IMG/VR virus record: IMGVR_UViG_3300021399_000102 | Location: 1 to 64,000 of that record | Length of the DNA stretch: 64,000 nucleotides | DNA from: a virus | Taxonomy: Duplodnaviria > Caudoviricetes | Direction: 5' to 3' (one strand) | Shown here: piece by piece, positions 6,011 through 64,000 of the stretch | Numbering within the stretch: position 1 is the stretch's first letter | Layout: every line of letters begins with the position of its first letter | Translations under genes and position numbers: made by a program | The notes under the pieces: generated by a model | The model's database searches: none | Told to the model about the DNA's origin: nothing | Seen by the model: the letters and a program-made list of their open reading frames with translations, nothing else

Positions 6011-7297
6011 TCACATATTCCCTTCTGGATTGGAATTGTACTTTTGCTTGTTGACTTCCAACTTGAATGTCATATATTCATTTCCTTGGATTGATTGAGC
6101 GCGTATTACCATCAAGTTTGAGTTAAACGCATTGATTATGTCTTGCACTTCCTTGATGATAATTACATTGTTGTCTATCCAGTTTGGAATCTATTGGGAA
6201 TCTGAACCAGGTCTTAAATATACAACAAATGCGTCGTCATTTCCATGCTTTGCCTTGTCTAGGTATGCTCCCCATACACCTTCCAATTTTTTGAGTGCGC
6301 TTCGTTTCCATTTATTGGACAATGTACGTATGTCTATTGATGGTACTTTAGCATCGACTCTCTATTTTCTTGCTCCTTCTGGATTGTTGTCTGGCTTCCT
6401 TGTCCATACAGGAATTTTTTCCGAACCGGTGTTTTCATATCCACACGCCTTCATCATTACTGGAACTTCTACGCGCCCAATGTCGTCGGGGCCAGCAGAA
6501 TTTGCTTTCATCTCTACAGGAATTCGCTTTCCAACACCAAGCTATCCACTTGGGAAACAATCTATATCTCCTACATCTCCTATCACACAATCCTTGAATA
6601 GAAGGGCAAACAATATTTCGCCTTGTCCCATTGACGTTGCTTTTTTCAGATGGAATCTTGTCAATTTGGTTATGATGTCATCATCCAAATTAATTTCGTT
6701 CCCATAAGCGTCATTGATTATCCTTCTAAGGGATGTTGTGTTGTTCTAAACATTCTATAAAGCCTTAAAAAGGGATGAATTGGATTTTTTTACAACATTG
6801 AATAGATTGAACAATTCTTTTATTTCTTTTGCTGACCATTGCGCCAATAGTAATTTTGCCGTCATTTTTGGCTGCGTCTTATCTCCACCACATTCTTTTA
6901 TGTATCTGTCAAGTTGATTGAAAAGTTGAAATCCTTGTGATTCCTCACCATCACCCAATTCCTTGAACATATCTCTCAACCTTTGCAAAGTTTCATCTGA
7001 TTTCTTTTGTGATACTTTGAGAAATGTAAGTATTACTTTTGCATGTTCCTCAAACTCTGACCATGTTTGCTTCCAAGTTTGGTCTTGTTCGTCTTCGGTT
7101 TTCCCCTGAGGGATTTTTCTTTCTGTGAAAATTGATGATGGGTAATACTTCTTTACCAGATCAAACATACTACTTGCGAGAATTGAGATTGAAGCCTCGC
7201 TATATATGGCTTTATCATCTGAACTTTCAGATTGCAATTCTTTGAAAGTATATTTCTCTTTCTTTGTCCCCTCTATGTCAATCCATGTGTATTTCAT
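6011..7297 (-). CDS. Putative PD-(D/E)XK nuclease-like protein, 428 aa with 5 in-frame TAG
   Basis: Frame continues through TAG at 6755, 6746, 6542, 6362 and 6191 to TGA at 6011; GQGEILFALL...GDI...VEMK motif; GTAAATA upstream; start could instead be 7324. Confidence 0.65.
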
Positions 7298-7394
7298 CTT
7301 CTTGAACTCCCTTGAATGGTTCATAGTGGTATTTACCATATGGGATATAAGAAGTATAATTAATAAGATAGAAGAGTTTAAGGAGTATATTCGT

Positions 7395-8420
7395 TTGAAA
7401 GACTACTACAAGATATTGGGCGTTTCTGAAGATGCTTCGGACGATGAGCTGAAGAAGTCGTTTCGCAAGCTCGCCATGAAATACCATCCTGACAGACAGG
7501 TTGGCAAGTCTGACGCCGAGAAGAAGGAAGCTGACGAGAAGTTCAAGGAAATCAACGAGGCATACGACACTCTGTCCAGCAAGGAGAAGCGCGAACAATA
7601 CGACACCATGAGGAAGTATGGTGGAGATTCTTCTGGATTCAGTCCGTTTGGGGACATGGGTGGTGGCACTGCGCGTCAATGGACTGACGAGAATGGCAAC
7701 ATGCATTGGGAGTTCCATGGAGACCCAAGAGGCATGGGTGGTTTCGATCCGTTTGGCATGGGTGGATTTGGAATGGGTGGGTTCAATCCATTTGGCAGGA
7801 GACGGGTTGATCCAAATGCCCCAAGACGTGGAGACGACTTGATGTTCACATTGTCGGTTGGTTTCATGGAAGCCATTGAGGGATGCAAGAAGAAGGTTCG
7901 CCTCAACGTTGATGAGGATTGTGGTTGCCTTACTGGGTGCGACAAATGCGATCATACAGGGCGCAAGACCAAGACAATAACGTTGGAGGTGAAGATCCCG
8001 AAGGGATGTCCAAATGGTCAAAGGTTGAGGGTTGCTGGTCAGGGCAACAGAGGATATAATGGTGGTCCCAATGGAGACATCTACTTTCAGATTGACGTTG
8101 GAGACGACCCCAATGGCGTGTTCATCCGAGATGGATTCGACCTGCTTCAGAAGGTTGATGTTCCATTCGAAACTTTCGTGTTGGGTGGCGAGATTGAATA
8201 TCATACCTTGAATGGGATTGAGAAGTACGAGGTTAAGCCCCATACGAAGCCAGGAAAGGTGATGTTGTTCCAAGGTAAGGGAGTTCCTGTGATGAATTCG
8301 CTCAACGCATATGGAGACTTGAAGGTACTGCTTGACCTGAAGATGCCAATTGACTTGACTGACGAGGAGCGCAAGCACCTTGAGGCGTATCGAGATTGCC
8401 GTGTAAAAAATGGTAAATAA
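7395..8420 (+). CDS. dnaJ: DnaJ chaperone
   Basis: TTG start behind AAGGAG; J-domain DYYKILGV...KYHPD; G/F-rich linker; C-terminal domain; zinc finger much reduced. Confidence 0.92.
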   Translation: MKDYYKILGVSEDASDDELKKSFRKLAMKYHPDRQVGKSDAEKKEADEKFKEINEAYDTLSSKEKREQYDTMRKYGGDSSGFSPFGDMGGGTARQWTDENGNMHWEFHGDPRGMGGFDPFGMGGFGMGGFNPFGRRRVDPNAPRRGDDLMFTLSVGFMEAIEGCKKKVRLNVDEDCGCLTGCDKCDHTGRKTKTITLEVKIPKGCPNGQRLRVAGQGNRGYNGGPNGDIYFQIDVGDDPNGVFIRDGFDLLQKVDVPFETFVLGGEIEYHTLNGIEKYEVKPHTKPGKVMLFQGKGVPVMNSLNAYGDLKVLLDLKMPIDLTDEERKHLEAYRDCRVKNGK

Positions 8421-9287: not shown

Positions 9288-9953
9288 ATGTCAGACTTGA
9301 TAGACAATTTGATTGAATCTGGGGTTCAGACGACCCAGGAGATGGAAGTCAAGAAGGGGAAGAACAAGAACGCAAAGGAGATTCCCTTCGACATAGATGG
9401 AAAGACCTATATGCTCGATTCCCAGGAGGAATGGTGCATGTTCAACTGGATTAAGGAGATGAAGGAGCATGGTCTCTTGACTGACTACATCTATCAGCCG
9501 GAGCACTACGACCTCTCCCCACGATACGAATACACGCCATATCCCGTCCATACTGACAAGAATGGAGAGTTCAAGAAGAAGTTTCTGATGCACCCTCATG
9601 TCTATACGGCAGACTTCATATTGAGATTCGACGCGAGAAACCTTCAGCTGATTAGATATTTGGCGCAAGCGTTCAAGATAAGGTTGGATGACGTTAAGGA
9701 CAATGAACTGACATTGGTGGTGGATGTCAAAGGCACTTTCATGAGCAACGATGGAGGGCGTTCATTCTCCATAAACCAGAAGTTGATGATGGCTGTTCAC
9801 AACATCTATGTTCAGAAGTTTGTTCCCAAGGTGGCGTTCAAGAAGTTGGGCGTTCCAAAGAGATGCACCACCACGATGAAGTCTGGCAAGGCAAGCAAGG
9901 TGTTCAAAGGCATGAACTTCATGGAAACCGTATTGAAAGGATTTGACCTGTGA
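9288..9953 (+). CDS. PD-(D/E)XK endonuclease (DUF1064/TnsA-N-like)
   Basis: DSQEE...YQP...YTADF...VVDVKG motif. Confidence 0.65.
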   Translation: MSDLIDNLIESGVQTTQEMEVKKGKNKNAKEIPFDIDGKTYMLDSQEEWCMFNWIKEMKEHGLLTDYIYQPEHYDLSPRYEYTPYPVHTDKNGEFKKKFLMHPHVYTADFILRFDARNLQLIRYLAQAFKIRLDDVKDNELTLVVDVKGTFMSNDGGRSFSINQKLMMAVHNIYVQKFVPKVAFKKLGVPKRCTTTMKSGKASKVFKGMNFMETVLKGFDL

Positions 9954-10903
9954 TAAAGCTTGAAAGCAAGAACCCTTCTGGGACATGCCATGTCATATTT
10001 CCAAATGATTGCATATGCACGCTAAAGGCGAAACTTGTTCCACATGCAGACCTCATAATTGCAGATCCACCATACTACAAGGTGGTTGGCGAGAAGTGGG
10101 ACTACCAATGGCGAACCGAGCAAGACTACATTGATTGGTCTGTCCAATGGCTTTCTGCAGCACACGATATGCTCAGGATTGGCGGTTCGATGTACTTGTT
10201 TGGGTACTTTAGAACATTGGCGTTGCTCTTGCCAAAGTTGAAGGAGATTGGATTCTCTCTCCGTCAGCAAATTGTCATTGACAAGGGCATGAAGGCTGTT
10301 GCTGGAAGGGCAACAAAGAACTACAAGATATTCCCTTGCACAACTGAATCAGTATTGCTGCTCATGAAAGACAACATACAGTTCTCCAGGAAGTTTCTCA
10401 AAGGCAGACAAGAGAAGTTGGGATTGACATCAAAGGAGATTAACGAGGCGTTGGGTGTGAAGTCCAATGGTGGTGGGATGTGGTCTATCTACACAGGGAA
10501 CAACGTTTGCGAACAATTCCCTACGAGGGAGATATGGGAGAAGTTGGAGAAGGTGTTGAAGTTCGACTTGGAATACGACCAGATAGCCCAAACCTTCCAT
10601 CCCCAAATGGGATTGACTGACGTTTGGACTGACATTGATTTCTATTCTGAGAAGCGTTGGCATCCTACACAAAAGCCACTGAAATTGATTGAAAGGTTGA
10701 TTGCCACTTCATCCAATCCATTTGACAAGGTTATTGATCCATTTGGGGGATCTGGCTCCACCTTGATGGCTTCAGAGAAGTTGGACAGACAGGCTTTCAT
10801 AATAGAGCAAGACGAGAAGTATGTTAAGGCGATGATTGAACGCTTTACCTCTGAGACCGGAAATGGTATAATTGAAGTTGAAAGGATAACCAACAATGGC
10901 TGA
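9950..10903 (+). CDS. DNA amino-methyltransferase (N6A/N4C, beta class) with internal HTH-like insertion
   Basis: DPPY near the N-terminus; HPTQKP and DPFGGSGST near the C-terminus. Confidence 0.88.
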   Translation: MIKLESKNPSGTCHVIFPNDCICTLKAKLVPHADLIIADPPYYKVVGEKWDYQWRTEQDYIDWSVQWLSAAHDMLRIGGSMYLFGYFRTLALLLPKLKEIGFSLRQQIVIDKGMKAVAGRATKNYKIFPCTTESVLLLMKDNIQFSRKFLKGRQEKLGLTSKEINEALGVKSNGGGMWSIYTGNNVCEQFPTREIWEKLEKVLKFDLEYDQIAQTFHPQMGLTDVWTDIDFYSEKRWHPTQKPLKLIERLIATSSNPFDKVIDPFGGSGSTLMASEKLDRQAFIIEQDEKYVKAMIERFTSETGNGIIEVERITNNG

Positions 10904-12162: not shown

Positions 12163-12198
12163 CAATGGAACGAGGATTTTGAAATAGGTGGTTTGAAC

Positions 12199-13200
12199 AT
12201 GAAGTGGAATAAATTGTATTAGGGAAAGGCAATCCTGTCTGAAAAGACAATACCATCTGACGAAGAAACCATAATGGCATCTTTCGGGCATGATGTAAGC
12301 GAATAGAAGTTCTCCCCTTCCAGGGAGTTTCTCAGGGTTGCCTATGGCATCTTCAACGACAGGTTCTTCAGAGGAAAGCTCCCAGAGGGCATTTAGTTTC
12401 AAGTGAAGACCCAACCTACGAAGTCCTATATTGGCTTGGCTTCCTACATGTATGATAGGAGAATGGACAAGGTATGGGCGACTTCAGTAACGTTGAATGG
12501 GTCAAGAACCCTCACTTTGCACGAATGGCTTGAGGTTGTTCTCCACGAAATGATACACGTTCTGGACTATGAAACAAACCCCCAGCACTTTGTTGGATAT
12601 ATGCGCCACGGCTATGACGTACATGGCTATTGGTTCTTGACAGAGGGCGAGAAATACACCAAGTATGGCTTCCACGTTCAGAAGTATTGCAAAGCTGACA
12701 TTGGCGTGAATACGGACGATTCCAAGGTGAAGAACAGAATCGGCAATTCGGTGTTCCTGTACATGAAGGGAACAGGACGTCCTCTCATAATGAAGATGTC
12801 AAGAAAGAACTTGGACAGGAACTTGGACTACATAACATCCAGGATGGGAAAGCCTTGGAGTACGTTTGGACAAGGTGTCAAGGAGATTCAGATAATGACA
12901 AGCGAGAACCCAAAGATTTCCTTGTTGCGTGACTTGAGGATGCGAGACAGCACGTCCAGAATATCCTGGTGGTGGTTCGACGACGATTTCAACAAGAAGT
13001 ATGGGCCATTCGAGGTTGAGGACACAGTGAAGGTCTTGAGCGCGAAGAACAAGGTCAATGAAGAGGACTTGGAAAGCAAGCCAGAGGAAGTTGAGCCAGA
13101 GACGCCAGAAGAGGTCATCGACGAGATTGAAGACAAGATTGACGGCGTTGAGGACGTGAAGGAAATTTCTGACGACAAGTTCGTTGTTTCAATTCAATGA
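12199..13200 (+). CDS. SprT-like zinc metalloprotease, 333 aa with 3 in-frame TAG
   Basis: Read-through of TAG at 12220, 12304 and 12394 restores the SprT N-terminus (FNDRFFRGKLP); LHEMIH...HG motif; MKWNKLY leader; GTAAATA at 12136. Confidence 0.8.
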
Positions 13201-19744: not shown

Positions 19745-19771
19745 CAGATGGCAGTATTGAAAATAAGGTAC

Positions 19772-21400
19772 ATGGCAATGGCACAACAAGTTCAATTTGT
19801 TTATTTGGGATAGAGTGAATATGACACATTGGAAAGCAAGTCTCCTGGACATCTGTACTTCACGTCTGACACCCATAGGATATATAGAGGATCTGACTTA
19901 TATGCAACAACATCGTTTGACACTGTTTCTGCCCAATCAGCAACCTTTGGAGATTTGACTGTCACTGGAAATGTATCAATGTCATTGTCTCAGGTTGAGT
20001 TTGGGAGAATATAGGCTTCTGAAATAACTGTAGATGGAAGTTCCGTATCTCTTGAAGGTCACACGCATCCAGAACTTTCGGGGATAACTGAATCTGAGAT
20101 TTCCAAGACAAGCGCGACTTTTCAAGACTTGACAGTTACGGGAGATGTGACATTTTCTGTTGACCAATTGGATTTCCAAAGTCTTACGGCTTCAAGTATA
20201 GTGGTCAATGGAAGCCAAGTCTCTCTTGAAGGTCATACACATTCAACATCTGACATATCAGGGTTGGATTAGATGCTTTCTGGATATGCGTCTGCCTCGC
20301 ATTCCCACGCAATATCTGACATCACCAACCTATCCACAATCCTTGAGGGCATAACCCAATCAGAGGTAACAAAGAACAAGGTAAGCGCGTCAGCAGGCGT
20401 GTTTGACCAGATTTCAGCAGAAAGCGCAACTTTCTCGTCAATAACAGTGCAGGTTGCTGATTTCACCACAACAAGGGTTTCAGCCCAAGCCATGACAGTT
20501 GGTGGGTCAAATGTCTCAGTAGAGGGACATACGCATGGGATGTCTGAGATAGAAGGGCTTGAATCTTTGGCAACAACCTTGTCAGGAATAACCAAATCAA
20601 CCATAGCAAAGGCATCAGCCACTTTCCAAGACCTTGTTGTTACAGGGGATGTGACATTCTCGGTTGATCAACTAGATTTCCAAAGCATTACAGCTTCAAG
20701 CATATTGGTGAATGGAAGTTCAGTGGCACTTGAGGGTCATGTTCATTCTGCGTCTGACATATCAGATTTCGCATCTGCAGTTGTCTCTGCTGGAACAAGC
20801 GCGTTCGCAAGCGCATCGCATTCCCATGATGGACTTCAAGGCTTGACATCAAGTTCCATAACCAAGGATTTTGCTTCGTTCAATTCCATAAGCGCATCAA
20901 CCGCGACATTCGACAATCTTGTTGTTATTGGAGACGTGTCATTGTCTCTGTCCCAAGTTCAATTTGGGAGCATAATGGCGTCTGACATATCAGTGAATGG
21001 AAGCCAGGTGTCGCTTGAAGGACATGTCCACGCCATGTCTGAGATAGATGGGCTTGAAAGTTCCATCAGTCAATTAAACGCATCTGTTTCCGCGTTTGCT
21101 TCTGCGATGTCTGGATTGGATGCGACCTCTATTTCCAAGACTACAGCCACATTTGGAGACCTTGTTGTTACGGGGAGCGTGACATTCTCGGTGGATCAAC
21201 TTGATTTCGACACTTTGACTGCGTCGACCATATTGCTGAATGGAAGTTCAGTTGCAGTGGAAGGGCATACGCATTCAACATCTGACATAACTGGTCTTCC
21301 AAATCTATCCATTTGGGAAACCAGGCTTTAGAGTGTTGAAGATCAATTGGTGGGACTTGAATCTGCGCTACATGCTATCAACAATGGAGGAAACGCATAA
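19772..21400 (+). CDS. Tail fibre-like repeat protein with HxH motifs, ~542 aa with 4 in-frame TAG
   Basis: One frame through TAG at 19811, 20012, 20270 and 21329 to TAA overlapping the next ATG; six repeats ending EGH(T/V)H plus two ASHSH. Confidence 0.75.
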
Positions 21401-46885: not shown

Positions 46886-46935
46886 CTGCTTGAATGGTAA
46901 ATAGAGGCGGACGATATAGGAAGGAAGCACATAAG

Positions 46936-49398
46936 ATGTACAAGAACCACAAAATAGTTGTTGCAATGACAAGCTGGACAAAGCGCATAGGTAATTGCGC
47001 ATAGGTGGTGAAATCTATACTTGAAAATACCCTTAAACCTGATATTGTGTACTTAAGCTTATCCTTGGAAGAATTTCCTCAAAGAGAATTGGCGTTGCCA
47101 TAGAACTTGATAAAATTGTCGAGACAGGAGTCTGCATTCAAAATCAATTGGGTTCCCGGAAAGAATACCAAATCAATGAAAAAGGTATTTCCTATTTTGC
47201 AATATATAGATGATGATGATATAATCATCACTTGTGATGATGATTTGGATATTCCAAAAGGACTTATCAAGTCCAGGGTATAGGATTATGATAGGTATAA
47301 ACAACCAATTACTGCAATATAGTCTCCCAATTCAAGACATGTTATGTTGCACGATATGATTGGAACATGCTATATGCCTGGGATGCATCCAACATCGTTA
47401 TATACTAAACGAATGTTGAAAGGGTTTGAGTGTTTTTATGTTCCTCCTGTGATAAAATACTCGAATGATGATTTGATCTATATGTTTTTGTTGAGACTAA
47501 ATGGATATAAGCAAGTTAGGTGTTCATATTATCCAACGTGGGACAAAAACAACAAGCAGAATGACCAAATTAGGACTTTGTTTCCAGAAGATGACTATTC
47601 TTTAAGAAACACTTATGTTGATGGAAAGACATATAATCAATCATTAAAGGAACAACTTGTTCAATTGATAGACATTGTTTATAAGGCAAAAATTTGGCAT
47701 GGAGACTTCTACAATTTATGTGCTGAATATAAAAACCGAGGAAACACTTGCCTCAATAGAAAAACACTATGTGTGGTCGCCATATAGAAAAATGAGAATG
47801 CCTACATAAATGAATGGATAGAACATAACTTAAATATAGGTGTTTCCCATATATTTCTCTATGACAATTCTTCAATCAATGAACAAATCAAATATTCCAT
47901 TTTGCCTAAATACGAGAATTTTGTTACAATTATAGAGGTATTTGATAAGAAGAAATATCAGCTGTCGGCGTACACAGAGGCATATTATAAATATGCTCCT
48001 GAATATGATTATGTTGCTTGTATAGACGTTGATGAGTTCATAACATTTAATAATGGGATGAATTTGGATAAACTATTGTCGTCTTTGCCAAAAGATTGCC
48101 AGTAGTATAGAATAAATTGGCAGTTGTTTGATGACAATGATATTGTCAATAGAGATGTAAGAAATTCAGTAGTTAAGGATTTCACCAGAAAAATCCCAAA
48201 TAGAAACACTGTAACAAAAAGCATTGTCAAAACTGGGATAAAGGATGTTGCATATACATCAACACATTATTGCTCGTGTAAGTCGAATGGCAGAAAATTG
48301 CCACTGACCACATATTATGGCAAAATGGAATAGTTGAGACAAAATCTTTTTAATGTGGATATGGGTATTTGTGATTATTCCATCGCATAGGTAAATCACT
48401 ATATCACAAAAAGTGCAGTTGAATATGTGGATAGAATAAAACGGGGAGATGCAATAATAGATTATGTTAGGTCAAAGGAAACATATTTTCAATACAATAG
48501 GTATTCCAAGGAGAAAGAACTGGTATTCAATGAATCTAATAGAACATTGACTTATGTGTATTGGGCGAATGATAAAATAAGGGATAATGCTGGCGATTGG
48601 TTTAATCATACTATAATGGATAAGATATATTTCTGCAAAAACAAAGATTATTTGTCAAGCTCAAATATGAATACAAAGATTGATATGGCAATGTGTGGTT
48701 CATTATTGGACAATTCACATACCATGGTTAAAAACTGTCAGTACATTGTTGGATGTGGAGCATAGATTCTCCATAGGAAGCCCAGCAACAATAAAGGTGA
48801 ATCTTATCTTGCTGTAAGGGGAAATATATCTAAAGAATTTCTTGAAAACAATAATGTACAAGTACCAAGTAACGTTGTTCTTGCTGATCCGGGAATTTTA
48901 TTGGGTTCGTTTTATGATTTTAGAAAGTATGTTAAGCAGAAATACGATATTGGAATAATTTGCCATTATATGGATGAACAGAAGGTTAGGGAAAAATATG
49001 GGGATGATCCGAACCACATTGTGATTTCAATGCGTACAACTGATATTCAGAAATTGGCATATACTATTTGTCAATGCAAATTGACGGTTTCCTCTTCATT
49101 GCATGGAATAGTTTTCTCTCATTCATTGGGTGTTCCATGCTATCATATATCATTATCTGAGTTGAACAACAAGTCCGGGGATATAAAGTTCAACGATTAT
49201 TATTCATCGTTTCCATTGGAATATGAGAAATTCGTGTATAGAGACTATAAGATAGATTTCCCAAGAATATTGGAATATGATTCCCATAATAGGGGAAAAT
49301 CAAATCCAACCATCGACATGGTTAAGAAAAAATAGAAGGAACTTTTGCGTGTGTTTCCATTTAAGAACTTGATTCGTAAACAATTCATTTCCAAATAA
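46936..49398 (+). CDS. Three-domain glycan enzyme (GT-A, GT92-like, polysaccharide pyruvyltransferase), 820 aa with 10 in-frame TAG
   Basis: TCDDD; KNENAYINEWIEH..IGVSHIFLYDN..IDVDEF; NAGD..GSLL..VRG..DPG..SSSLHG; only TAG interrupts the frame. Confidence 0.8.
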
Positions 49399-49412: not shown

Positions 49413-49841
49413 ATGTCGAAGTTAAATATATGCTTGATATTTCATCAAAACATGATATCGTTATGTGTATCAGCAATCAAAACCATACTTGATAGTTAGA
49501 TTGATGCTAATAGAATCTATCTCACGATGTCATATAAGGAATTTCCAAATTGGGAATAGGATTTACCAAAAAGTCTTTGTCATTTAATAATGACATCAAA
49601 TAAGATTATTCTAAATTGGGTGGATGACATATATGGATTCGAGAAAAATGCGATTGCCAAGATTAGGCAATATGTATCAAGTGATTCTGATGTAGTTATT
49701 ATCAAAGATCGAGATTGCGTATTAAAGGATTATATTTTAGAAAAGATGAAACATGTATCAAGAGGATGTGAGTATAAAAACATCAAAGCAAAGCCATAGG
49801 AACATAAAGTCCAAAATCATTCGACATTTTGGTTTCATTGA
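49413..49841 (+). CDS. Short GT-A-like paralogue, 142 aa with 3 in-frame TAG
   Basis: Aligns with the N-terminus of 49889 (RIYLT.S..EFP..EQ.LPK.L.HL.MTSN..ILNWV). Confidence 0.65.
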
Positions 49842-49888: not shown

Positions 49889-51490
49889 ATGTCCACTATA
49901 AACATCTGCATGACATCTTTTCCAAGGCGCATAACGAATTGCGTTCCAGTAATAAATTCGGTACTTGATAATACAGTCCTTCCCGACAGAATATATCTCA
50001 CGCTTTCCCACCAGGAGTTCCCTGGTTTCGAGCAAAGTTTGCCAAAGGAATTATATCACTTGGTGATGACTTCCAACAGGGTAATCCTGAATTGGGTTGA
50101 GGACAACACAAAGTCCATGAAGAAGGTGTTTCCAATCCTGTCATATCTTGAAGACGACGACATCATCATTCCAATTGATGACGACATGCTTCTGCCAAAG
50201 GATTTCATAGAGGCAAGGCTCAAGGACTTCAGGGACAACAACTGCGAACATCCAATCACGTCCAATCTCTCCAAGACAATCAACATGGACAATATGGTGT
50301 TCACTGTCTATTCTCTGGTTCAGAAGAAGATGCTCAATGGTTGGGAGAAGTTGAATGTTCCATTGGTTCTGGACACATGCAACGACGACAGAACATATCT
50401 CTATCTTTGCCATCTCAATGGCTACAAGCTTGTTCCTTGCACTAAGTATTGCTACACGCCGGGAGATTCACATGGAATCGAGAAGCTTCCAATTGCTCCA
50501 AGAAGTGACTATCAATATCAAGTGGGGCCGTTGTATGACAGGATTCTTGCTCCATTGATTGCCAAGTTGTCTGGTGGCAAGACCATACGCGACTGCTTTG
50601 GATTGTTCAATCCAAAGGAAGAGGTTGTAAACGACAAGAAGCAGAAGAGGAATTTCGTGGATGTCAAGCAACTTTCATCTCCATCCACGAGACCAGAGAT
50701 AGATGTTGCAACTGCACGATTGTTCCAATACAACCTCAAGAATCCAATCAAGCACGATTTGGTGTATGTGCTTGGAGATGGAAGCCACTACAAGAACCTG
50801 GAGATAAAGATTTCCATAACATCCATGTTGAAGTTCTGCTCACATTGGATAAATGAAATCTACGTGGTTGGCGAGAATTCAGGAATCAAGAACCCAAAGG
50901 TGCATCACATCTACGCGCCAGACGTTTCAAGAAGCAACAAGGACGCGAACATCATCTACAAGTTGAACATGGCGATATAGAGGATTCCAAAGCTCACTGA
51001 GAACTTCTTGTTCTGCTCTGACGATATTCTTGTCACTCGGAAGTCTGATTGGGAGGATTTCATGCCAAGACAGGTGTTCGAGTACAACCAGAACGACGAG
51101 TTCAGAAAGAGATTGAGGGAGGATACCAAGGACAATCCTTGGGATGAACTCTTGATAGGGACTATGGACAGGTTTGTTGGGAACAGGGAGCATATCTACT
51201 TCTACGAGCCACATATCTTCGCTCCAATCAACAAGAAATACTTCAAGCGAATGTGCAGGGAGATTGACTACTTGAACAGCAAGAATGTCATCATAATGTC
51301 CCTTTGGTTCAACTGGCTTGGGTTGCCCAATCCCCCAAAGAAGTACGATCATATGTCAATATTTAATCAAAGTCAAGCAATGAAGATGAACAAGCTTGAA
51401 CGCCATTTGACATACAACGACAAGGCGTTTGGGGTTAAGGAGTTCAGGGATGGTCTAATAGAACTTGTCACTATGGACGAGTTCAAGTAA
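49889..51490 (+). CDS. GT-A domain fused to a Stealth-like hexose-1-phosphate transferase, 533 aa with 1 TAG
   Basis: IDDD; DLVYVLG, E.K.SI.S..K, LTENFLFCSDD; TAG at 50978 joins two track ORFs. Confidence 0.75.
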
Positions 51491-52374: not shown

Positions 52375-53724
52375 TTATAGGTCTTGTATCAAATCCCATT
52401 GCTTTATTACACACCATATGGAGTTTGTCGAAGGTTCTCGCATTTTCAATACGAATGGCGCGTTTGTTATTGTTGCATAAAGACCATTTGTGTATCCTAT
52501 TTCAGGTGATATTGCGATTTTTATGTTCTTCGATTGTGGAAGTTGGGAGAAAGAGATGATGAAATTGGAATCTTCTGGAACATTTAACAATTCACCTTTT
52601 GATTCATATTTGCATTGTGGTATCTCCATAAACACCAAATCAAAGTTTCTTTGCCCAAGGGGTGGTTCGACTCCAATCGTGGTACCTGCCATGAACACGC
52701 CATTTGTGTTTGGTTGGAGTTTGATTTCTGTGACCCCACGGAGCATTGGTTGGATATTTTGCATCTTGTCCAATTCATCTTCTTCGTGTTCGACCCCATC
52801 TCCAACAATTGTCGTGTTTCCATTTTTCATCATTATCAACAAATCGTTCAATACGCCATCACGCATTGCAGAGAACGCCAGTTCAAGCCGATTGGTTGGA
52901 ATCTAACCATTTTTGTTCACAATTTGCCATTGTCTGAATTGGAGTGTATTCATCTCTGAATTCTTTCCAGCACCTATCTGGACAGAACCTCTTGCAGTTG
53001 CTTCTGCATTGGTGTTTCCTTCATGAGACCCTATAGATATCGCATTGATTGCTGATGCTCTGGATTTTCCACCTATTGCGATTGCGATGTTTGTTACTGA
53101 TCTTGCGCTATACCCAAGAGCAATAGATTCACTTCCAGATGCATAGGTTGCATCCCCCGTTCCTTGTGTCACATCCTCGTTTGGATGCTAGGCTCCGTTT
53201 CCAATCGCTATTGCATTGCTTGATTTTGCTTGTGCATGCCATCCTATCGCAATTGCCTGCGATTTTCCACCAGGAACAACCGCATCAGCATAGTCTCCAA
53301 TGGCGATTGACACTGACCTCAATATGGTTGGCTTATCTATGCCATCTATGTACGATTGGGGGATTTTGGCCTTTGCTCTGAATCCAATTTCGATTGCAGA
53401 ATTCTAATCTTCGCCATTTCCATCTATGAATGTAACTCCAATCTATTCTTTTTCTGGCGAAAGCGATATTGGGGATAGATCAATGGAACGACCCAAATCT
53501 TGCACCACTTTTGGGATGAAATTGGTGTATGTCTGTCCAGAATCATGCCTGGTCATCACCACATTCAATTCGTTTGATTTGACGAATCCGTGTTCATGTA
53601 CAACCTTTTCAATTGTTTCATCCAAGTTCACATCCCACCATGTCTATTCTTGAATGGAGTATGCGTCCATTGTCAATACCATGGATAAAAGAACGAGTGC
53701 AATTTCTATTGATGTATTTTTCAT
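52375..53724 (-). CDS. YadA-head-repeat adhesin-like protein, 449 aa with 5 in-frame TAG
   Basis: Repeated (S/A)IAIG..A.A motifs; hydrophobic N-terminus; TAG at 53644, 53443, 53404, 53188 and 52903. Confidence 0.72.
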
Positions 53725-53819: not shown

Positions 53820-53855
53820 CCAACATAAGGTTTGTAGATAGGAAGAAAAGAAACC

Positions 53856-56800
53856 ATGAGGCATAACGTAGAAGACTTGAAGGGCAGGGCGTTGGTTGAG
53901 AGCAACATCCTCAAGCAATTCATATTGTCGGCGACAGCGAAGAAGAGAGGCGAGTTCAAGCCACAGTTGGACGATATCTTGATACATGACTATCAGATGG
54001 CGAATTCTGTGACATTGAACGTCATTCTTTCCAACTATATGGTTGACCTTGCCTATGCCATAGATTCCATAGAGAATCCTCTTTATGGTGGGAATAAGGA
54101 CTCATACTTCAAGTTGGTGCGCGACTTGGATGAAACCAACAACCATCTCGACGACCAAACAAGGTTGGTTCTGGACGTAGCCGATGGAGATGGTACGTTC
54201 AAGTCTCGTGACTTGATTCTTCAGATGAAGGAAGTGTGGAATCAAACTCTGAAGGTAAAGAAATTCTTCAATCTCGATTCAATCTGGTATTGCCAAAGGG
54301 ATGGGAATGCTGGAAATGACAGGATAGATATTGTTAATGAGATGAACGATTTCGTCCGTGATGCCAATCCATTTGGTGACAATCCGTTTGACAAGCCATT
54401 GTTTGGAGATGATGGCACATCTTTAGGATATACATTCAACAAATGGCTTACTGAACTCAATTGCATTATAGAAAATAGATTCTACAAGAATGTCCTCAAG
54501 GACGATGGCGCGAAAGGGACACATACCAATTTTGGGGACATGATTTCCAAGTGTAGGTATTTGCTTTGCGGACATGGTGGATTCTATGGATTGGAGGCAT
54601 ATTGGGACACGACAGGAGGCGAGAGGGCTTTCAAGGGCTTCAAGTTGCACGATATTGGGGCAACACTTCCAATTCTTGGCAAATCCTTGGAATACAAGTT
54701 CTGCAGTTTCCACGTCATAGGAAATGCAGATGAGACTACGTTGTTCTTGGCAGTAAAGGAGAAGTCAGGTGGTCTATATCACTATCTTTACTTGAATGAA
54801 AGTTCGATTGACGAAACCTACGGCTTCACTGAGATTGATTCTGTTGTCGTTGACCAATTGATTGTTCAACCTTCTGAGGTGTTCTCCTGGGTGGATAGCG
54901 TAAGGGAATTGGACACTGTCAACATAGCCCTTACTGACTATGGCTTCTGGGACATTGAAGCAAACCAAACCAACAACATCACCTATTCATACAGAAATGG
55001 AAAGTCCTATGAAAATAATGTGACTCCTGCGTTCAATGGAGACAACACCAAGCTGATTGATCCAACGATTTCCATTAAACCGACCACCAAGTATTGCGAA
55101 TATTCCCATGAGGAGGAATCTGGTGATGAAGAGACATATAGGATAGATAGGCTTTGGAACAAGAAGGATGGATACTGGTATGCCTGTCAGGAACTTGATA
55201 AGCCCTATAGAAGTTCCATAGTTGGAAACAATGGCAATACCTTAAATCTGGTTGGATGTACCGAACACTTTGCTGTATATGATTCCAATGGAAACGACCC
55301 CATCCATATCTTGGTCAATTTGTCTGAAGAGCAATTCAAGAACCTGTTGTTCTCTGATGCGCAATTGACAAACTACTTCATTGAATGGCTTTATGATGAG
55401 GTAATACACCCCCTCAGAGATGTGCCAAATGGCGATACCAGGGAGGAATGGTACTTGTACAACAACTATTCTGCCTTCATAGCCAATTTGGGAAGTTCTC
55501 TGGCACCATCTGACGCAAATGAAATCTCATATTCTGACCTTCATTTCCAATTGAGGAAGGAATATTCATCTTCTGACACGACGATAAAGATAGACCTTTC
55601 AGACAAGTTTGGCTTGGTGGTAGGGCCAGACGACAGCCATCATGGTGTTGTAGATATGTATGACGCATCTGCAAGCACACTGACACAATATTGTACTGCC
55701 CTCAATGATATAGTAAATGCTCTATATGGAGATATGGTTGATGGGTCAGGAAACCCAACGGGGAATCTGAATGTGAATTGGCTCATAGATTCTGGTGAGT
55801 CGTCCCTCATATAGAACATGTACAACCTCTTCTCCAATGTAACTTGGGGAACGAAGCGTGATGCATTTGTGGAAAAGACCATAAAATCCCTGATATAGGC
55901 GTTTCTCCCTTTGGAGTATTTCAATCCATATCTTACGGCACATCTCAAAGAAGACCTCAAGAAGTTTGATTCTGCAATAGAATCTCCTGAAACACACACT
56001 GATGCGGTCAAGCTTACCGAGAATGAGAAAAAGCGTGTTGTGAAAGCAGTATAGAACTATATAGAGGGCAAAGTCAAGACTTCCCTTGTGCTTGGAAAAT
56101 ATCGCAATTCTGACCCAGAGGACAATACAAGATATCCGGACATTGAAAAATATCTCCAAAATACTGAGCGTAAGATTAGCAAGCTTCAAGCAAGAGACAT
56201 TATGTCCTTGACAAATACGCTCAAGGAAGTCACATTTGCTGTACAATCCACGAAGTTCATCAATGGTTGCGATTCATTCGCCAAGCTCGCCAGAATACGT
56301 GATGATTCAGACCTGTTCGCAATGGCAGAGAATGCCTCATTTGTCGCCCTATCCAATCTCGTCAAGTCAGATGGAGAAACCTTGAACGTGAATTGGTCGC
56401 AAGATGGTGGCCGAGGAACTGACGTGAAGGGGTGGATGTTTGACCATGAAAATTGCTCTGACGAGAATATGCTCAAGGCATTCATTAGAACCCAAATCTA
56501 TCGTCCTCTGTTCTTCCAATGCAACAATTATAGCAATTTCACGAGCAATTCTGAGGCGTATTATTGCGTCACCGAAAAGTATTTCATTGACCATGTTGGA
56601 AACGAACACAAGGTGCTTTTCACCAATTGGCCAGATGAAGAAACGCTTTATATCTCCAAGGATGGGGCAGAAGATCCAAATGGAATCAAGGACATACTTG
56701 AATCTGATGAAATATCTCATGGCGAATATACTATTCCATCTGACAGCATTAAATATTTCCCAATCTCCAACAAGTTTGAGTATAGCATAAGCTACAATCC

Positions 56801-59800
56801 TGTTCAGATTGAAGACAACAAGTTTGTCATAAACGACGTTGAATATTATGTGGTAAGATCTGATGGTGAGGAAGATAGTCCAATCAACAGCATCTACTTC
56901 AATGAGTTCCAAAGCAACACTGAGGGGCAGAACCAAGTTGCGCAGGTGATTGATGGCAACAAGTTCACGCTCAATGGCTTGGAATATGTCATAGAGGGAA
57001 ATGAGATTTCCATACCTTCTGTGACCCAAGTATTTGACGAGAATGCCACTGATGATGAAGTCTCTGATGAGGACAAGGGAAGATATAAGGAGTGGAAGTG
57101 TGACATAGTGGACGACAGGTTCCAGTTTGATGGCATTTGGTATGTGCTTGTGAGGGATGCCAGAAACAATTACGCATCCGTTGAGTATGCTGACAACAAG
57201 GACAACAAGCTTATTCCACTTCTTGTGACAATAGATGGCGTTGCAGAATACAAACCTTGGGAGCTTAAGTTCCAGTTTGAGACCTATGGAGCCAATGCTT
57301 GGAAGATTGTCAGGGCAGTCAAGAAGCATCAATCAGATGTCATTGACCGATTGGCATAGGAATGGTGCGAGTTTGACGGCACAATTGACAGTCCATCTGA
57401 ATATGGATTTACCCCCAATAAGACCTATGATTGGTATGTCGCAAACGAACTTCTAAAGATTCAGCAGCAACATCCAATTGAATACAGGAAACTTCTGAAC
57501 CTTGGTTCTGGAAAGCTCTTCAATGGAGCATTGAAGCTCATCACAAGCACGGTTCCACCAAGAGATTGCATTCTCCATATGCGAAATGAACTTCAGAACG
57601 AGGATGTTGTCACTGTTTGCGAGCTTGTCAAGAAGTATGACGACAATGAACAGGTCCAGTTCATGGGAGTGCTTTTCGACAGGGACATGAATCTTGATTC
57701 TGTCAGAATGTTCCGTGGTGATCTATCCGGAAACATTGCCATAGAAGGATCATCCGGAAGGTTTGCATTCTTTGTCAAAGAACTTGGTTCTGGTCTGAAC
57801 AACGTCAATGTTGCTTGGACAGACTATTCAATATGGAATGCATCTCACCAAATTGTTCAGAATGCCGCAGAAGCGCAAATAGACGAAGAAACAAACCAGA
57901 TTGGGTTCTATTGGGATGCAAACCCAAATTACTCAGAAACCTCCAAAGTCATATTGACTCCAATATACAGACTTGACGATGAAGGAAACGAAACATCAGT
58001 AATAATCAAGTACAATGTTGATATAGACAATGGACTTAAACAATATACAGTTTGGGTCAATGGTCAATATGTGCATTTCATAGTCAATGAAAACAGATAT
58101 AGGTTGAATCTTTCAACAAACAAGGTCGATAGATTGGTCATAAACGACATTCACGTTCAGACCGTTGACTTCTCCACGTCATACAATCCAGAGCAATTGA
58201 AGGACAATTTGGCTCAGAACGTCAAGAATGCGATGCTCAACCAGATTGTATAGAAGGTCATAGACAGTGAAGCCACATCTGCTGGAGGGGAAATAACAAT
58301 TCAATTTGAGCGGCCACTTGCCCTATACTTGGATGTGTTCACTGATGCAGAATCGTTGGATAACTATGTCATTGCCAACAATCTGGAAATTGATTCTGAC
58401 GATTGCGTGAAGTTCTCCCAAGTGTTCAAGAACAACCTTGTTGACATAGATGAATCCAGAATGGTGGATGGCAATGTGTATCGTCATCTTTCAGACAACA
58501 TAACGAGGACGTTTGGCAGAAATTCCAACCTTCCGGTGGTTGATAGTCCATCCATATAGGTGAAGAGAATAAAGGTTGGTTCAAAGGACACTGACACATT
58601 TACGTACAATGTTCTTATGGACGTGTACATAATGCAGAACAAGGAGTGGATGAAGAAACATAGCACTTACGATGGGAAGTATGTCATAGCCAATGCCATA
58701 GTCAAGGACATGGAATGTTCAGTGACAATAACTCCAACATATCACAAGGCTGATGGCACAATATCATATGAAGCAAAGTATGTGGTGAACAAAAAGCCGA
58801 GTAATCGAGACACTTATGATGTGGAGTACAACCAAATCGTATATAACTACAATGGCAAGACCAAGCACATGACCACTGCAGCCACCCGCAAAGTTCAAGA
58901 TGGTGTGAATTTCTTGGATGTCATAGGTCTTAATTTGACATATTCCACGAAAGGTAATTTGAAGGTTAGAACCACTCCAACCACAAGAATCATAATAGAC
59001 GAAATCATCTCCAAGGAGATATAGAACATCTTTGTCCATAAACTTTCAGATAATACCTATGATTACGACTACATCAAGATGTTCAACAAAATCAACAATG
59101 CTATTTCTAGTCCTGAAATAGTGGATAATTCTGTTGTGGAAAATTATGGCTATGATGCGGACAAGATATGGCCGATAGGGGGAATTATTCATAGGGATGG
59201 TGGGGAACTTGTCAATGTAAATAGAGGGTAGACATACATTAGGGGTCAGTTATACAAGATTGATGACGACACCAAATTGCTTCCATTAACTGGATCTCAG
59301 GAATATGGCATCAATGATGTGAAGATACACGCATATGAAAATATTCCTGTGATGAAGGTTCTTGTTCCTGTTTCCGACACAAATCAACAGTATCTTGTAC
59401 AGTATCTTAAGACCTTTAGCTTTGGTTCTGAGCCACATTTGACCTTTACAACTGACATAAGTGAAGCACATCAATTCCAAGTTGCAGTGGTTAAGCCAGG
59501 GGATTGGACAGTATCTAATTGGATTGAAACAAACATAGGTGATTCAAGGGTCATAGATGGAAAGACATATACAAGGGACAATTTTGGGGAAGATTCGTAC
59601 TTGAAGCCAGTAAAGGCAAATCCTGAGCAGGGCACTGAGGAGGGATATGAATTCAAGCAAGTTGCAACAAGCGAAAAGGTACTTGTTTATAAGGACAACT
59701 ATATCACCACAACATCTGAACAAGGCAAGTTCTCGGTGAAAGCTCTTGGAACTGGAGAGAATAGAGATGTGTTCCTTTGCTACAATCCACGTTCAGGAAA

Positions 59801-62800
59801 GCCAAGCAGATTCCATGTCCAAAATTACAATACTACCCATACATTTGACACAACGAAGCTTGTCAATATTGCATTGTATGAAGGAAGCATTAGGAATAAA
59901 GACACTGACAACCCAAATGTTCTGAACTATGTATATTTGACCACCTCTCCTGGGTTCTATCCTATTTCCCCGTGGCTTGTCCGTGAGGGTTCTCATTCTG
60001 AAATCAAAGGTTTCTTGATTACTGAATACAATGGGAGAGAAGAAAGGAGACTTGGACCTGGGCTTAAAGATGGCGAAGTATTTTAGCAGTCATTTTCTTG
60101 GTTGTCAAATGAAACGCCAAAAACCGAAGAAACAGTGAGAATTAAATTCGGTGTCAATAGAGTTGAACAAGTAGCTTCGCTTCCGAAGGACGAGGACGGC
60201 AAGCCAACTGGGGAGCTTGGTGTCCTATACGTAGTGACGGACGGAAAGAACTACTATATGACCCAAGTCGGGGTTGACGGTCTTGGCTATCCAACATATG
60301 ACTATGTTGAAACTTACGACACTTGGGATGGGTTGGTCGGTACGCAGATTGAAATACCTGTGGCATTCTCCAAAATCAATACCGACAGTCCAACGGTAAG
60401 CATAGCCAATGGAAGTTATGTGTGCTATTCAATGGATTCCGTTCCAGACTCACGAACATAGAATTATGTTGTGGATGTAATGGAATACACTGTGCGTTCC
60501 GGAGACATAAACCAAAGCCCATTGATAGGAGATGAAACCAATTATGTTTCTTCTGAGGAGACGCAGGAAGCACAAGGTGAAGATGTCGTCCGAATCACCA
60601 AGACAATATCTTTCACGCCTATGGTGATTGTAAGGAGGAAGAAGTTTGCATTGGATCGTGGAAGCTCATACATAGCATCCAACAGTATGTATGTCAATTG
60701 TGGGAATGATGATCCTTTGCAAACCCAATACGTCATCAGAGCAACTGATTTCGGTGGAGATAAAGTTGGGACTTTGGAGTTTGGATTCTTGTCCTTGCCT
60801 TTGGATTTGGATGATGATGCTGATGAAACATATTACACTAAAAGGCTATCTGAAATAAATGCGCAAAGGAAGGACGGTGAGAAACTTCTGATGAATGAAA
60901 TCCAACATAGGTCAATAGACGAATACACCTGGAGCTATCCTGCGCATTTCGAGTTTCAGGGAAATGGCATCATAAGTGATGGAACTGACTGGCCAATTTC
61001 GCTTGATGTACTTCCCCCTGGAAAGCTCCCTGATGATGATGGAGACGTATATAACAGAGTGTATGAAGTCCAACAGAAGGTATATGCATAGCATGTGGAT
61101 TTCCCGGAAGGAGACTATCCTGGGAAGGATGATGCTTCAGGAGCAAATTCTGTGTGGATAGACAAGGCGAGTATGGCAGCATCCATAAGCGCAAAGGATA
61201 ATGTTGATGATTGGAAGAAACTCATATACAAATGCGTGGACGACAATCTGACATCCAACATAGATGATGCCGTTCCACCAAGGATGCGCGAAAGCGTGGA
61301 GAAGCTTATTTCCAAGACGACATTCTTGGACGATTCGTATTTCCATGTAGTTCTCACGCAGCTACAAACGTTTCTTGACATGATTGCAGGAGAGTTGCAT
61401 CAAGAGTTTGTGTTGTCAGACATTGCCAATCTTTGCAATTTCGAGTATTCCATGAAGGGAATAAAGTTCAAGAACCATGATGCAAATCAGAGAAATTGGG
61501 CAAATACGGGTGGCTTGTTTGGATATAATCGTTCTGGAATTGAATATACGTCGTGTTTGGAGAGTTTCAAGAACCACCTGCTTGACGAGTTCAAGAGCGA
61601 CTGGAGGAAGATTACACCAGGTGTTGTGGATGACGACGATGAGGACACCTATATAGGGAATAGGGATTACCACTATATTCTATTGTCTTCTCCAATTGAC
61701 TATACCAATGCGGCCAATATTGCGAAATTGCGTAACGACACTCTTTGGGAGATGTGGAGAACATTGAACTATCCACCAGAAACTCCACCCGATATCATAG
61801 ACCAAATATTCCAAGAATCGTCCGACAAGGTCAGGTACATCAATGCGACAAAGACAACAATAAATGGAAACTTGATTGGCATGTTCGTTGCTGACACCAC
61901 ATGCAATTTGTTCGTGAAGACATAGACATCAGATGTGCAACCCAAGGACATTGTGAGATGGTACACATTCGACGCGCAAAAGCCGACCATGGATGCCATT
62001 GTTAGATATAGGGTTTCCTCTGATACTGGCGACTATGTGTTTGAGCCAAGGATGCGATTCACAGACTATTCAATATCGAACGATGGATGGCTGTTCAAGA
62101 TGCTCAACAGAGATTTCGTTGGAACTTCAAGGATTTCTGACGCATTTGCCATCCATTGCGAGCAGGAATCTGAAACAGAACAAGCATTGTGGTATGTTCC
62201 ACAACTGGATGCGTACATATATGGAGCAAACTCAACAAGACCAAACGCAAACATTGATGGCATATTCGACATGGTGTATGAGCAATATGGCGACAGGCTT
62301 TATGTCCTCTTCAATGGGGACAACCATCTCTATGCCTACGACAACATTGGTCAGACAAAGACGTTCGATGGATTCGTGATACTCAAGAAGGAGACTGCAA
62401 CGTTGAAGCTCAAGACGTTCAATTCAATTCAGATAACCAACGACAAACTTGAGTATGGCAGGTTGTTCCTCGACTACTTCAGGACGGAAGCTGATGAGGA
62501 TGCTGAATACCACAATTGGCGCATAATCCTCTATGGAAAGCGTATAGACAAGAATACACAAGCAGAAACATTCAACAGGGAGATTTGGTACTTCAGGCCA
62601 GGTTTGGATAGGAGGGGCTATCAGCAATACAACTCCATCATGTTTGGAGATTCGTTGTTCGACGAAGGGCAACTCCGATTCCACAATATCTCCAAGAACA
62701 AGGACATGTACGACATCCTCGACATAAACGAGGTTGATGGGAGATACTATGGATTGTTCAAGAACGAGAATGCTGGATCAGAAGTCAATGGGAAAGAGAC

Positions 62801-64000
62801 CTATACCGTATTCAAGGCTGAGAAGGAAGGTGGTGTGGTTCAACGCCTCCCTTGGCAGATATTGAACAAGCATATGTACAGAACCAACGACAAGCTTTAT
62901 TCGTTGTTTGTGGTATCCAACGAGCCAGAGGAAGGGGAGACGTATCATCCAGTGCTCAGGGAGATTTCTGTCCCAAATTCTGACGAATATCCAAATAGGG
63001 TCATAGACATCAACAAGCTCTTCAAGGACAACAATGGGGAGAACGGGTGGAAGAACGATCTTGACGTGTATGGTTTGCTGATGGACGAGTTCAAGCTCAA
63101 GAGCAGGGAGGGGCAGATGTTCGCCCTCACCAACAAGGGCTTCCACAAGATTGACTACATAGACCAATTCAAGCAATTGTCCATAGACAAGTTGGCAGAC
63201 TTCAAGGACAGGTTGCACGATACGTTCAATGCGACGGTAATTCAGAAGCACATGGATGATATGCACAACGGGGAGCAGGATTACTACTTCGCCGTGTTGA
63301 GGAACAAGATAAACCAGTTTGCTGACGATTTCACGGTGTTCGATCTCATTCCAACCGAATTCACTGAGACCCAGGACGTTGGCGTAATCCCCAATGGACC
63401 AGTGACCGACATTGATACGATTGAAGACCATAGGGATGATTCCATCTTGACTTCCACGGACATTCTTTGGACGGATGGAATGTTCGCGCAATCCGACACA
63501 AACCCTGGAATAGTCACTTGCGCAATCTCAAACCCTGCAACAATCTACGACGACAACAGCGTATTCACGAAGTTCCAACGCAACCCGTCGATAGAGGGGA
63601 CAGAGTTCTATGATTTCATCAACGACCAAGATGGAAACACCTTGATGGACTTGTATGCGATCCCGTTCATATACAGAATCAACTCCAACAACACATACGA
63701 CCTCTACATCAACGTGCCAACCACGAGGACGAAGTACCTCAACAGGATTGCTGGAACGTTGCAGGACAATGGCACGGTCCAGGTTCTTGCTGGCGATACA
63801 AGGACGCGCTTGAACTTCCTTGAAGAGCCTATGGCGAACAACTTGAATGAATCCACCACGAGGTTGCAAGTGTTCATGGACAAGAAATATCTTTCCATTG
63901 GCACCATTGATCTGGTGGAGATTTCTGGAAACTCAATTCCAACGCAAATCTACAGGGACGTTCCAAACAACGGTCTCTACGATTCCATAGCCCTTGAGAG
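53856..64000 (+). CDS. Giant putative virion protein, >3380 aa with 12 in-frame TAG (3' truncated by window edge)
   Basis: Nine track ORFs share one frame, interrupted only by TAG (55812, 55896, 56052, 57357, 58251, 58557, 59022, 59229, 60084, 60459, 61089, 61923); open to the window end. Confidence 0.8.

Follow-up and report, generated by a model that had tools for sequence, protein, structure and literature searches.

Comparative evidence for TAG-to-glutamine recoding in a distant T4-like jumbo phage with a candidate suppressor tRNA

How is the triplet TAG read in a phage whose longest frames are broken by TAG alone? The 64,000-nucleotide stretch analysed here (the window) is the opening part (positions 1-64000) of one contig of 201,557 bp, IMG/VR record IMGVR_UViG_3300021399_000102, which IMG/VR classes as linear and which we call G0. 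A first-pass annotation, made from the letters of the window alone, proposed that TAG is recoded to glutamine (Gln), as in genetic code 15, across positions 6011-64000. Our analysis establishes that TAG is a sense codon and, by sequence comparison, that it corresponds to Gln. It also reveals a division between TAG-bearing and TAG-free genes that is conserved in related genomes, and a candidate amber suppressor tRNA elsewhere on the contig. Most comparisons use two complete relatives found through a protein-guided scan of IMG/VR, G1 (414,060 bp) and G2 (418,068 bp), both of which have direct terminal repeats. Their polymerases are 75-78% identical to that of the contig in amino-acid sequence, and DNA divergence among the three genomes is roughly 15-35%.

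With TAG as sense, 18 of the open reading frames (ORFs) in a mechanical list contain in-frame TAGs between 6011 and 64000, 68 in all. About 6 of these are probably upstream of the true starts (7403, 7406, 11955, 13337, 53835 and 30698, the last belonging to the ORF of the polymerase C-terminal part and lying upstream of that part, in the overlap with the endonuclease gene), so the earlier count of about 61 TAGs across 14 genes was a fair one. In the relatives of the ORF at 6011-7669 there is a TGA within the first ~97 codons. Reading TAG as sense gives a 2616-aa ORF at 37729-45579 and a 3621-aa ORF at 53832-64697, where the longest ORF under table 11 is 730 aa. Both frames, of 7851 nt and 10.9 kb, contain TAG and neither TAA nor TGA, which bears out the claim that read-through gives contiguous frames of more than 10 kb. 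Under a chance model in which TAA and TGA together make up 3.0% of codons, the average over all six frames, the ln P of such open frames is about -81 and -105, respectively.

The same conclusion comes from the comparison of coding density under tables 11 and 15 that the first-pass annotation had proposed. Greedy non-overlapping ORF cover of the window increases from 0.906 under table 11 to 0.952 with TAG as sense, and shows no such rise when TGA (0.900) or TAA (0.902) is read as sense instead. We used this measure in place of the raw sum of ORF lengths, which is misleading as a test of the code: there TGA as sense gains most, because TGA is the commonest stop triplet across all frames. Intact domains are restored by read-through, as had been claimed, with the Pfam domain LRR_5 running across TAGs in a leucine-rich-repeat (LRR) protein that has 5 of them, and GT2, GT92 and pyruvyl-transferase domains doing so in a glycosyltransferase that has 10. 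TAGs are distributed evenly along the ORFs except for an excess in the first decile that is caused by over-extended starts. The ORFs stop at 148 TGA and 70 TAA codons, and TAG shows no excess at the 3' end, occurring 8 times within 10 codons of these stops where 8.8 are expected and 20 times within 20 codons where 17.7 are expected. This agrees with the observation that none of the genes called earlier ends in TAG. There is no sign of TAG terminators, and a few short TAG-ending genes are possible.

We compared all contig ORFs with G1 and G2 by tblastn. Well inside the orthologue alignments lie 140 of the 225 in-frame TAGs of the contig, and 55 of the 72 in the window region. Where G0 ORFs of at least 300 aa are aligned, the in-frame stops of the two relatives are TAG in 47 and 31 cases and TGA or TAA in 8 and 9, and all the TGA and TAA cases are explained by errors of the crude gene list, either ORFs in the wrong frame or starts extended too far. 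A reverse tblastn with all six-frame ORFs of the relatives was discarded, as it was contaminated by non-coding frames. For the 3621-aa protein the alignments span residues 10-3527 and have 13 of its 14 TAGs in their interior, and the orthologues of the 2616-aa protein carry 14 and 7 TAGs of their own. A tblastn search of 50,697 GenBank phages with the 2616-aa protein returned no match. TAG is therefore a sense codon in these genomes.

The identity of the amino acid is indicated first by codons within the window itself. In the LRR gene, which is built from units of 23 residues, TAG 22321 and CAG 22390 stand in frame 69 bp apart in adjacent units (NNVF-TAG-NC and NNVL-Q-NC), and the codons orthologous to other TAGs of this gene are CAA/CAA at 21832, CAG at 21907 and CAG at 22657. 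In the paralogous N-terminal domains encoded downstream, TAG 49557 (EFPNWE-TAG-DLPK) and CAA 50033 (EFPGFE-Q-SLPK) occupy equivalent places. Both codon pairs had been put forward by the first-pass annotation and are exact.

Homologues outside the contig extend this evidence, and checking TAG columns in homologue alignments, as had been suggested, gives Gln at conserved positions. The distant homologues are predicted as full-length proteins and so presumably use the standard code. Among 85 distant homologues of the glycosyltransferase, the conserved TAG columns 624 and 814 are Gln in 6/7 and 7/8, with the remaining TAG columns variable and polar. An exhaustive HMMER search with a contig protein that resembles the tail-sheath stabiliser gp15 of phage T4 and has 7 TAGs finds Gln in 86 of 134 homologues at one TAG column (the TAG at residue 160 of this protein is contig 167607-167609). 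The closest database relatives are fragments of 60-276 aa with ends that abut TAG positions, which shows that these relatives are recoded too. Alignment with an 83%-identical metagenomic fragment (L005) places the contig's TAG opposite a CAR codon four times and the fragment's TAG opposite a Gln codon of the contig twice, and one TAG is shared. Of 7 TAG cells aligned with two homologues of the 6011-7669 ORF (P0236 and P0237, 56% and 55% identity), 3 hold Gln.

Genome-wide, the codon pairs from the G1 and G2 alignments comprise 34 in which TAG faces TAG and 227 others, which include Gln (59), glutamate (27), tyrosine (19) and aspartate (17). A likelihood calculation that takes its substitution frequencies from the same orthologue alignments ranks Gln first, with glutamate 137, lysine 173 and asparagine 186 log units behind; for the window genes only, Gln is first by 14.8. 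TAG accounts for ~17% of Gln codons in TAG-bearing genes. Paralogue pairs, distant homologues, TAG/CAR swaps in close relatives and the likelihood ranking thus provide four independent indications of Gln, the residue named by the first-pass annotation.

The use of TAG is not uniform along the window. Recoding had been proposed for the whole of 6011-64000, and although the assignment to Gln stands, the methyltransferase, both polymerase halves and the homing endonuclease within that interval contain no TAG, and nor does the window's helicase. Outside the window TAG is likewise missing from the genes for a sigma factor, NAD ligase, topoisomerase II, a clamp loader, a DnaB-like helicase, homing endonucleases and an endolysin-like protein. 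TAG-bearing genes encode LRR, tail-repeat, YadA-like and Listeria-Bacteroides-repeat proteins, gp15, glycosyltransferases and the giant proteins. Whether a gene is TAG-positive or TAG-negative is preserved in G1 and G2 (Fisher odds ratio 10.7, p 2e-8; Spearman 0.58), showing that the partition between gene classes is conserved.

This partition has a possible counterpart in upstream motifs. The motif GTATAATT, usually in the form GTATAATTG, occurs 32 times in the contig against ~11 expected and resembles a sigma-70-like extended -10 element. An ORF downstream could be assigned to 18 copies, and in 16 cases that ORF is TAG-free; the remaining two copies flank the tRNA locus described below and are upstream of an ORF with one TAG (contig 113550-114536). 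Examples in the window are at 10866, 17080, 25651, 26293 and 28810. By comparison, GTAAATAC is commoner before TAG-rich genes, such as those starting at 19748 and 53832 and the one at contig 114775-119871. We infer that these motifs may be promoters.

A tRNA with a CUA anticodon, one of the checks proposed by the first-pass annotation, does exist on the contig, but it is non-canonical and lies outside the window. ARAGORN reports 32 to ~40 tRNAs, in an array at contig 182.8-194.6 kb that includes Gln(UUG) and Gln(CUG), and yields no credible tRNA(CUA) on the contig in default, -ps90, -ps80, -ps70 or intron modes, with noise only at low thresholds. The Rfam tRNA model likewise gives no tRNA with CUA on the contig, and it does not report the candidate described here as a tRNA even with E up to 10. 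A regular-expression scan for a canonical NU-CUA-R anticodon arm and T arm gave no match; it missed the candidate because it required U33 and a 7-nt T loop, neither of which the candidate has. In G2, ARAGORN identifies an isolated tRNA(CUA) at 268,611-268,687, adjoining a block that matches contig 112,919-114,603. Alignment of the syntenic intergenic sequences reveals a 79-nt CUA cloverleaf on the minus strand at contig 114646-114724 (L003:646-724) and at G1 297902-297980. ARAGORN also detects a tRNA(CUA) in a fourth relative (L092), where it occupies the corresponding position and again follows the GTATAATTGAATGTGA motif. On the contig, the candidate gene sits between the GTATAATTGAATGTGA motif and a hairpin terminator and has its own GTATAATTG motif. 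A DNA pattern scan of IMG/VR for the candidate's anticodon arm found it in G1 only.

The acceptor stem of the predicted tRNA is 7 bp long and has U1-A72; G73 and an encoded CCA are present. The D stem (4 bp) carries an 11-nt loop that lacks GG, the anticodon stem is 5 bp long, and the T stem (5 bp) carries an 8-nt loop that lacks the T-psi-C sequence. The anticodon loop is CCCUAAC in the contig and CUCUAAC in G1. Comparison of these two genomes shows compensatory changes to both partners of one base pair in the anticodon stem and of two in the T stem, and the minimum-energy fold of the G1 sequence is the cloverleaf. U1-A72 and G73 are features of bacterial tRNA-Gln and fit the identity elements of glutaminyl-tRNA synthetase (GlnRS). 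On sequence grounds the contig encodes a candidate amber suppressor, a CUA tRNA at a conserved locus. The search for further decoding factors, release factor 2 (RF2) and GlnRS, that the first-pass annotation had suggested was negative: no RF-1 family domain (PF00472) and no class Ic synthetase/GlnRS domain (PF00749) was found in the contig, G1 or G2.

Other tRNAs of the contig are also unusual. A class-II-like tRNA at contig 192758-193035 (minus strand; L001:12758-13035) has an insert of ~190 nt in its anticodon loop, whose match to the Rfam group I intron model is below threshold (33 bits, E 1e-6 locally). Candidate anticodons after splicing are GGU, GUU or GUA; we considered this gene as a hidden suppressor and rejected it, as no plausible splice junction gives CUA. 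A 103-nt tRNA at contig 190269-190371 (minus strand; L001:10269-10371; Rfam 41.7 bits) has an insert of ~31-33 nt, placed in the D-loop region by Rfam and in the anticodon loop by ARAGORN, with both suggesting the anticodon GGC. The phage tRNA-Gln(UUG) and tRNA-Gln(CUG) have the atypical T loops CGCACAU and CGCAAUA.

Taken together, these results make it very probable that the contig belongs to a T4-like jumbo phage with two coding regimes, in which TAG is read as Gln in late genes by means of the phage's own CUA tRNA. The early replication and DNA-metabolism genes are TAG-free and end in TGA or TAA, and many are behind GTATAATTG, the sigma-70-like extended -10 motif; since they lack TAG they would be translatable by an unmodified standard-code host. 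In such a host the early genes and the suppressor tRNA would be expressed from host-type promoters. The tRNA would be charged with Gln by the host GlnRS or through the host's indirect Gln pathway, and the charged tRNA would out-compete host release factor 1 (RF1) at UAG, which would then be read as Gln. Only at that point would the TAG-bearing late genes, encoding structural, surface-decoration and giant proteins, be fully translated, and no phage RF2 or GlnRS would take part. We are more tentative about a narrower proposal, which we judge slightly more doubtful than probable: that this ~415-kb T4-like lineage switches the cell to code 15 by one component, a rebuilt tRNA(CUA) that evades tRNA finders and stands behind an early-type promoter motif.

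Several observations weigh against this interpretation. TAG sites fall in less conserved columns than ordinary Gln codons, with 26% aligning to Gln against 56% for CAA/CAG (~43% when TAG facing TAG is counted), and many single TAG columns are uninformative for this reason. The assignment to Gln is one made by sequence comparison. The contig tRNA has C33 in place of the near-universal U33 (G1 has U33), and it lacks the usual contacts between D and T loops. Its putative Gln identity derives from U1-A72, G73 and the codon evidence; compared globally with the phage's own tRNA-Gln genes it shows no significant similarity, and such similarity is uninformative on identity. GTAAATA precedes some TAG-free genes as well, and the promoter motifs are defined at the level of a consensus only. 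Gln charging, the timing of expression, a standard-code host and a TAG lock on premature late translation are suggested by analogy with the model of Borges et al.

One alternative is that TAG is sense but specifies another residue, such as glutamate, lysine or tyrosine, each one base change away, or pyrrolysine. Several variable polar TAG columns are indeed dominated by K, E, N, S or T, tyrosine is somewhat frequent opposite TAG (19/227), the amino-acid identity of the suppressor is not readable from its sequence, and ARAGORN labels the CUA tRNAs of the relatives 'Pyl', although it does so by default. The log-likelihood deficits of glutamate, lysine and asparagine, the Gln content of the conserved columns (86/134, 6/7 and 7/8), the exchange of TAG with CAA/CAG in both directions in the closest relative and a tRNA with U1-A72 and G73, like bacterial tRNA-Gln, make such a reassignment very improbable. 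Even less credible is the view that TAG still terminates and that the long frames are pseudogenes, truly split genes or products of rare leaky read-through. It would account for the failure of ARAGORN and Rfam to find a canonical suppressor in the contig, for C33 in the candidate tRNA and for the lack of an encoded RF2. However, frames of up to 10.9 kb are broken by TAG only, at the chance levels given above; TAG interrupts a common set of genes in three genomes, where 34 TAG positions are shared and the homology continues on both sides; and four relatives keep a CUA tRNA at one syntenic locus. Leaky read-through of up to 14 TAGs per gene would leave essentially no full-length product.

The remaining alternative places the recoding in the host, with the phage mirroring a host code in which TAG is sense and its own CUA tRNA being dispensable. 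Supply by the host has been proposed for some recoded jumbo phages that have no detectable suppressor (PMC13037316). Yet replication genes free of TAG in three genomes make sense only where TAG is a stop, and the phage retains its own CUA tRNA at a conserved locus. We also know of no established bacterial lineage in which TAG encodes Gln, and we attach next to no weight to this possibility. Reading of TAG as Gln in late genes through a phage tRNA thus stands as our preferred explanation.

The window is part of a distant T4-like jumbo phage with a full genome of ~415 kb. The contig is colinear with G1 from ~204 to 379 kb, and this together with the sizes of the complete relatives indicates that it represents about half of such a genome; the CheckV completeness estimate is 48%. 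The affiliation follows from a fragment of a gp23-type major capsid protein, the gp15-like tail-sheath stabiliser (PF16724, E 2.2e-21), a family B polymerase that shares ~27% identity with the gp43 of T4-like phages, and PHROG matches on the contig to topoisomerase II and a clamp loader. A search of PDB sequences with the gp15-like protein gave no match. The first-pass description of a gp23-type phage with a GC content of 40-45% is consistent with these genes and with the computed value of 43.9% for the window. Given the T4-type hallmark genes, membership of the Lak megaphages or the Crassvirales is unlikely. The contig begins with CTCTTCCGATCT (window 1-12) and ends with AGATCGGAA (contig 201548-201557), which are Illumina adapter remnants, so its ends are assembly artefacts and not genome termini.

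Recoding of TAG to Gln was described as known in Lak and some crAss-like phages, and it is documented for crAss-like, Lak, Garnet, Amethyst, Sapphire and Agate gut phages (10.1101/2021.08.26.457843), with proteomic proof for crAss-like phages (PMC9523058). The principle is therefore already established, and this phage is a well-supported further example that represents an incremental advance. As in those gut phages, TAG corresponds to Gln, the candidate suppressor tRNA(CUA) is phage-encoded, genes terminate in TGA or TAA, and recoding is concentrated in structural and late genes over several modules while replication genes remain standard. Less ordinary are the T4-type ~415-kb lineage, the lack of any helper of the release-factor or synthetase kind and a suppressor tRNA that escapes standard tools. 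Unlike the code 15 gut phages, this phage has T4-type hallmarks (gp23, gp15 and a gp43-like polymerase) and relatives of ~415 kb, and unlike some Lak and Agate phages it does not encode RF2. Non-canonical suppressors that escape detection, as this one escapes ARAGORN and Rfam, were predicted by Borges et al., who described none (10.1101/2021.08.26.457843). The Escherichia coli amber suppressor supE, a tRNA-Gln, shares CUA, U1-A72, G73 and the insertion of Gln at UAG in competition with RF1, the last being our inference for the phage tRNA. In contrast to supE, which is canonical and a weak suppressor, the phage tRNA lacks GG in its 11-nt D loop and T-psi-C in its 8-nt T loop, and the contig's copy has C33.

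A survey of 10,754 jumbo phage genomes found alternative codes in 3.58% (8.75% in the rumen) and detected a suppressor tRNA in 60.8%, calling recoding at a coding-density gain of at least 10% (PMC13037316). This phage resembles the recoded phages of that survey in being metagenomic (IMG/VR), in TAG recoding and in having many tRNAs, some with introns. Its crude ORF cover gains only ~4-5 points, a small increase because only some genes are recoded, and the filter could therefore miss this contig; the survey would also class the phage as 'without a suppressor tRNA'. The T4-like Jug phages, gut jumbo phages with genomes of 360-402 kb that are reported without evidence of alternative codes (PMC12880540), are similar in their T4-like markers, their size of ~400 kb and the fragmentation of genes by group I introns and inteins, to which the split polymerase and one tRNA with a group-I-like insert correspond here. 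Unlike them, the present lineage is TAG-recoded.

For annotation, table 11 fragments the late genes and hides giant virion proteins and glycosyltransferases (the pieces of close relatives in public protein sets are 60-276 aa), which code 15 allows to be described. The phage exposes two blind spots of current pipelines, namely a small coding-density gain and a suppressor tRNA invisible to standard finders. In biological terms, the phages in which TAG may lock late translation now include a T4-type jumbo lineage. If the proposal of a hidden, rebuilt tRNA is true, hidden suppressors may also be present in many of the recoded phages now recorded as 'without a suppressor tRNA'. This lineage may have the Jug phages, which keep the standard code, as relatives, and would then also form with them a natural pair for studying the onset of recoding.

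Table 1. Genes of the window discussed in the text, with window coordinates
Feature	Position	Strand	Evidence and remarks
T4 gp23-type major capsid protein, C-terminal part, cut by contig end	21..434 (ORF 3-584)	+	PF07068 Gp23, E 2.2e-33, profile 223-368; no TAG
DNA helicase	4228..5970	-	phrog_16, E 1.4e-59; 0 TAG in G0, G1 and G2; standard-code compatible
552-aa ORF, 7 TAGs	6011..7669	-	true start probably near residue 105-111, leaving 5 TAGs
DNA methyltransferase, TAG-free	9950..10903	+	phrog_67, E 2.2e-46; GTATAATTG motif at 10866 listed as preceding
335-aa ORF, 3 TAGs, weak SprT-like match	12193..13200	+	3/3 TAGs inside orthologue alignments
550-aa phage-tail-repeat protein, 4 TAGs	19748..21400	+	PF12789 PTR, E 1.3e-10; 4/4 TAGs inside orthologue alignments
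BspA-type LRR protein, 5 TAGs (21832, 21907, 22321, 22528, 22657)	21400..22887	+	PF13306 LRR_5, E 4.2e-68
Family B DNA polymerase, N-terminal part	26676..28784	+	phrog_262, E 4.4e-97; 0 TAG in all three genomes
HNH/homing endonuclease, 626 aa, TAG-free, between polymerase parts	28828..30708	+	phrog_3339, E 1.1e-120; GTATAATTG motif at 28810
DNA polymerase C-terminal part, TAG-free	30716..32059	+	phrog_1918 and phrog_262; intein-like blocks at start
2616-aa protein of unknown family, 8 TAGs	37729..45579	+	orthologue alignments span residues 32-2612; 8/8 TAGs internal
834-aa multi-domain glycosyltransferase / pyruvyl transferase, 10 TAGs	46894..49398	+	PF13704, PF01697 and PF04230 span TAG residues 298, 404, 480 and 624
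142-aa paralogue of glycosyltransferase N-domain, 3 TAGs including 49557	49413..49841	+	
533-aa Stealth-like transferase paralogue, 1 TAG	49889..51490	+	CAA 50033 opposite TAG 49557
449-aa protein with YadA-head repeat, 5 TAGs	52375..53724	-	no orthologue in G1 or G2
3621-aa protein of unknown family	53832..64000, on to contig 64697	+	13 TAGs in window, 14 in all

The genes of the window show further features of interest (Table 1). The C-terminal part of the polymerase begins with intein-like blocks (TTDH, VYDLEV, and HN followed by S), which suggests that the split polymerase reflects a split intein or a similar arrangement. The three adjacent genes at 46894-51490 have in common a paralogous N-domain of ~120-270 aa and differ in the transferase module that follows it, which is GT2/GT92 with pyruvyl transferase in the first, none in the second and Stealth-like in the third. 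More than 80 metagenomic proteins have the same N-domain joined to varied C-terminal enzymes. A transposase gene at 23686-24894 (minus strand; phrog_506, E 4e-44) forms the best-conserved block of the comparison, with 87% DNA identity to a non-syntenic region of G2 (263632-264999), and for that reason it is probably an active mobile element.

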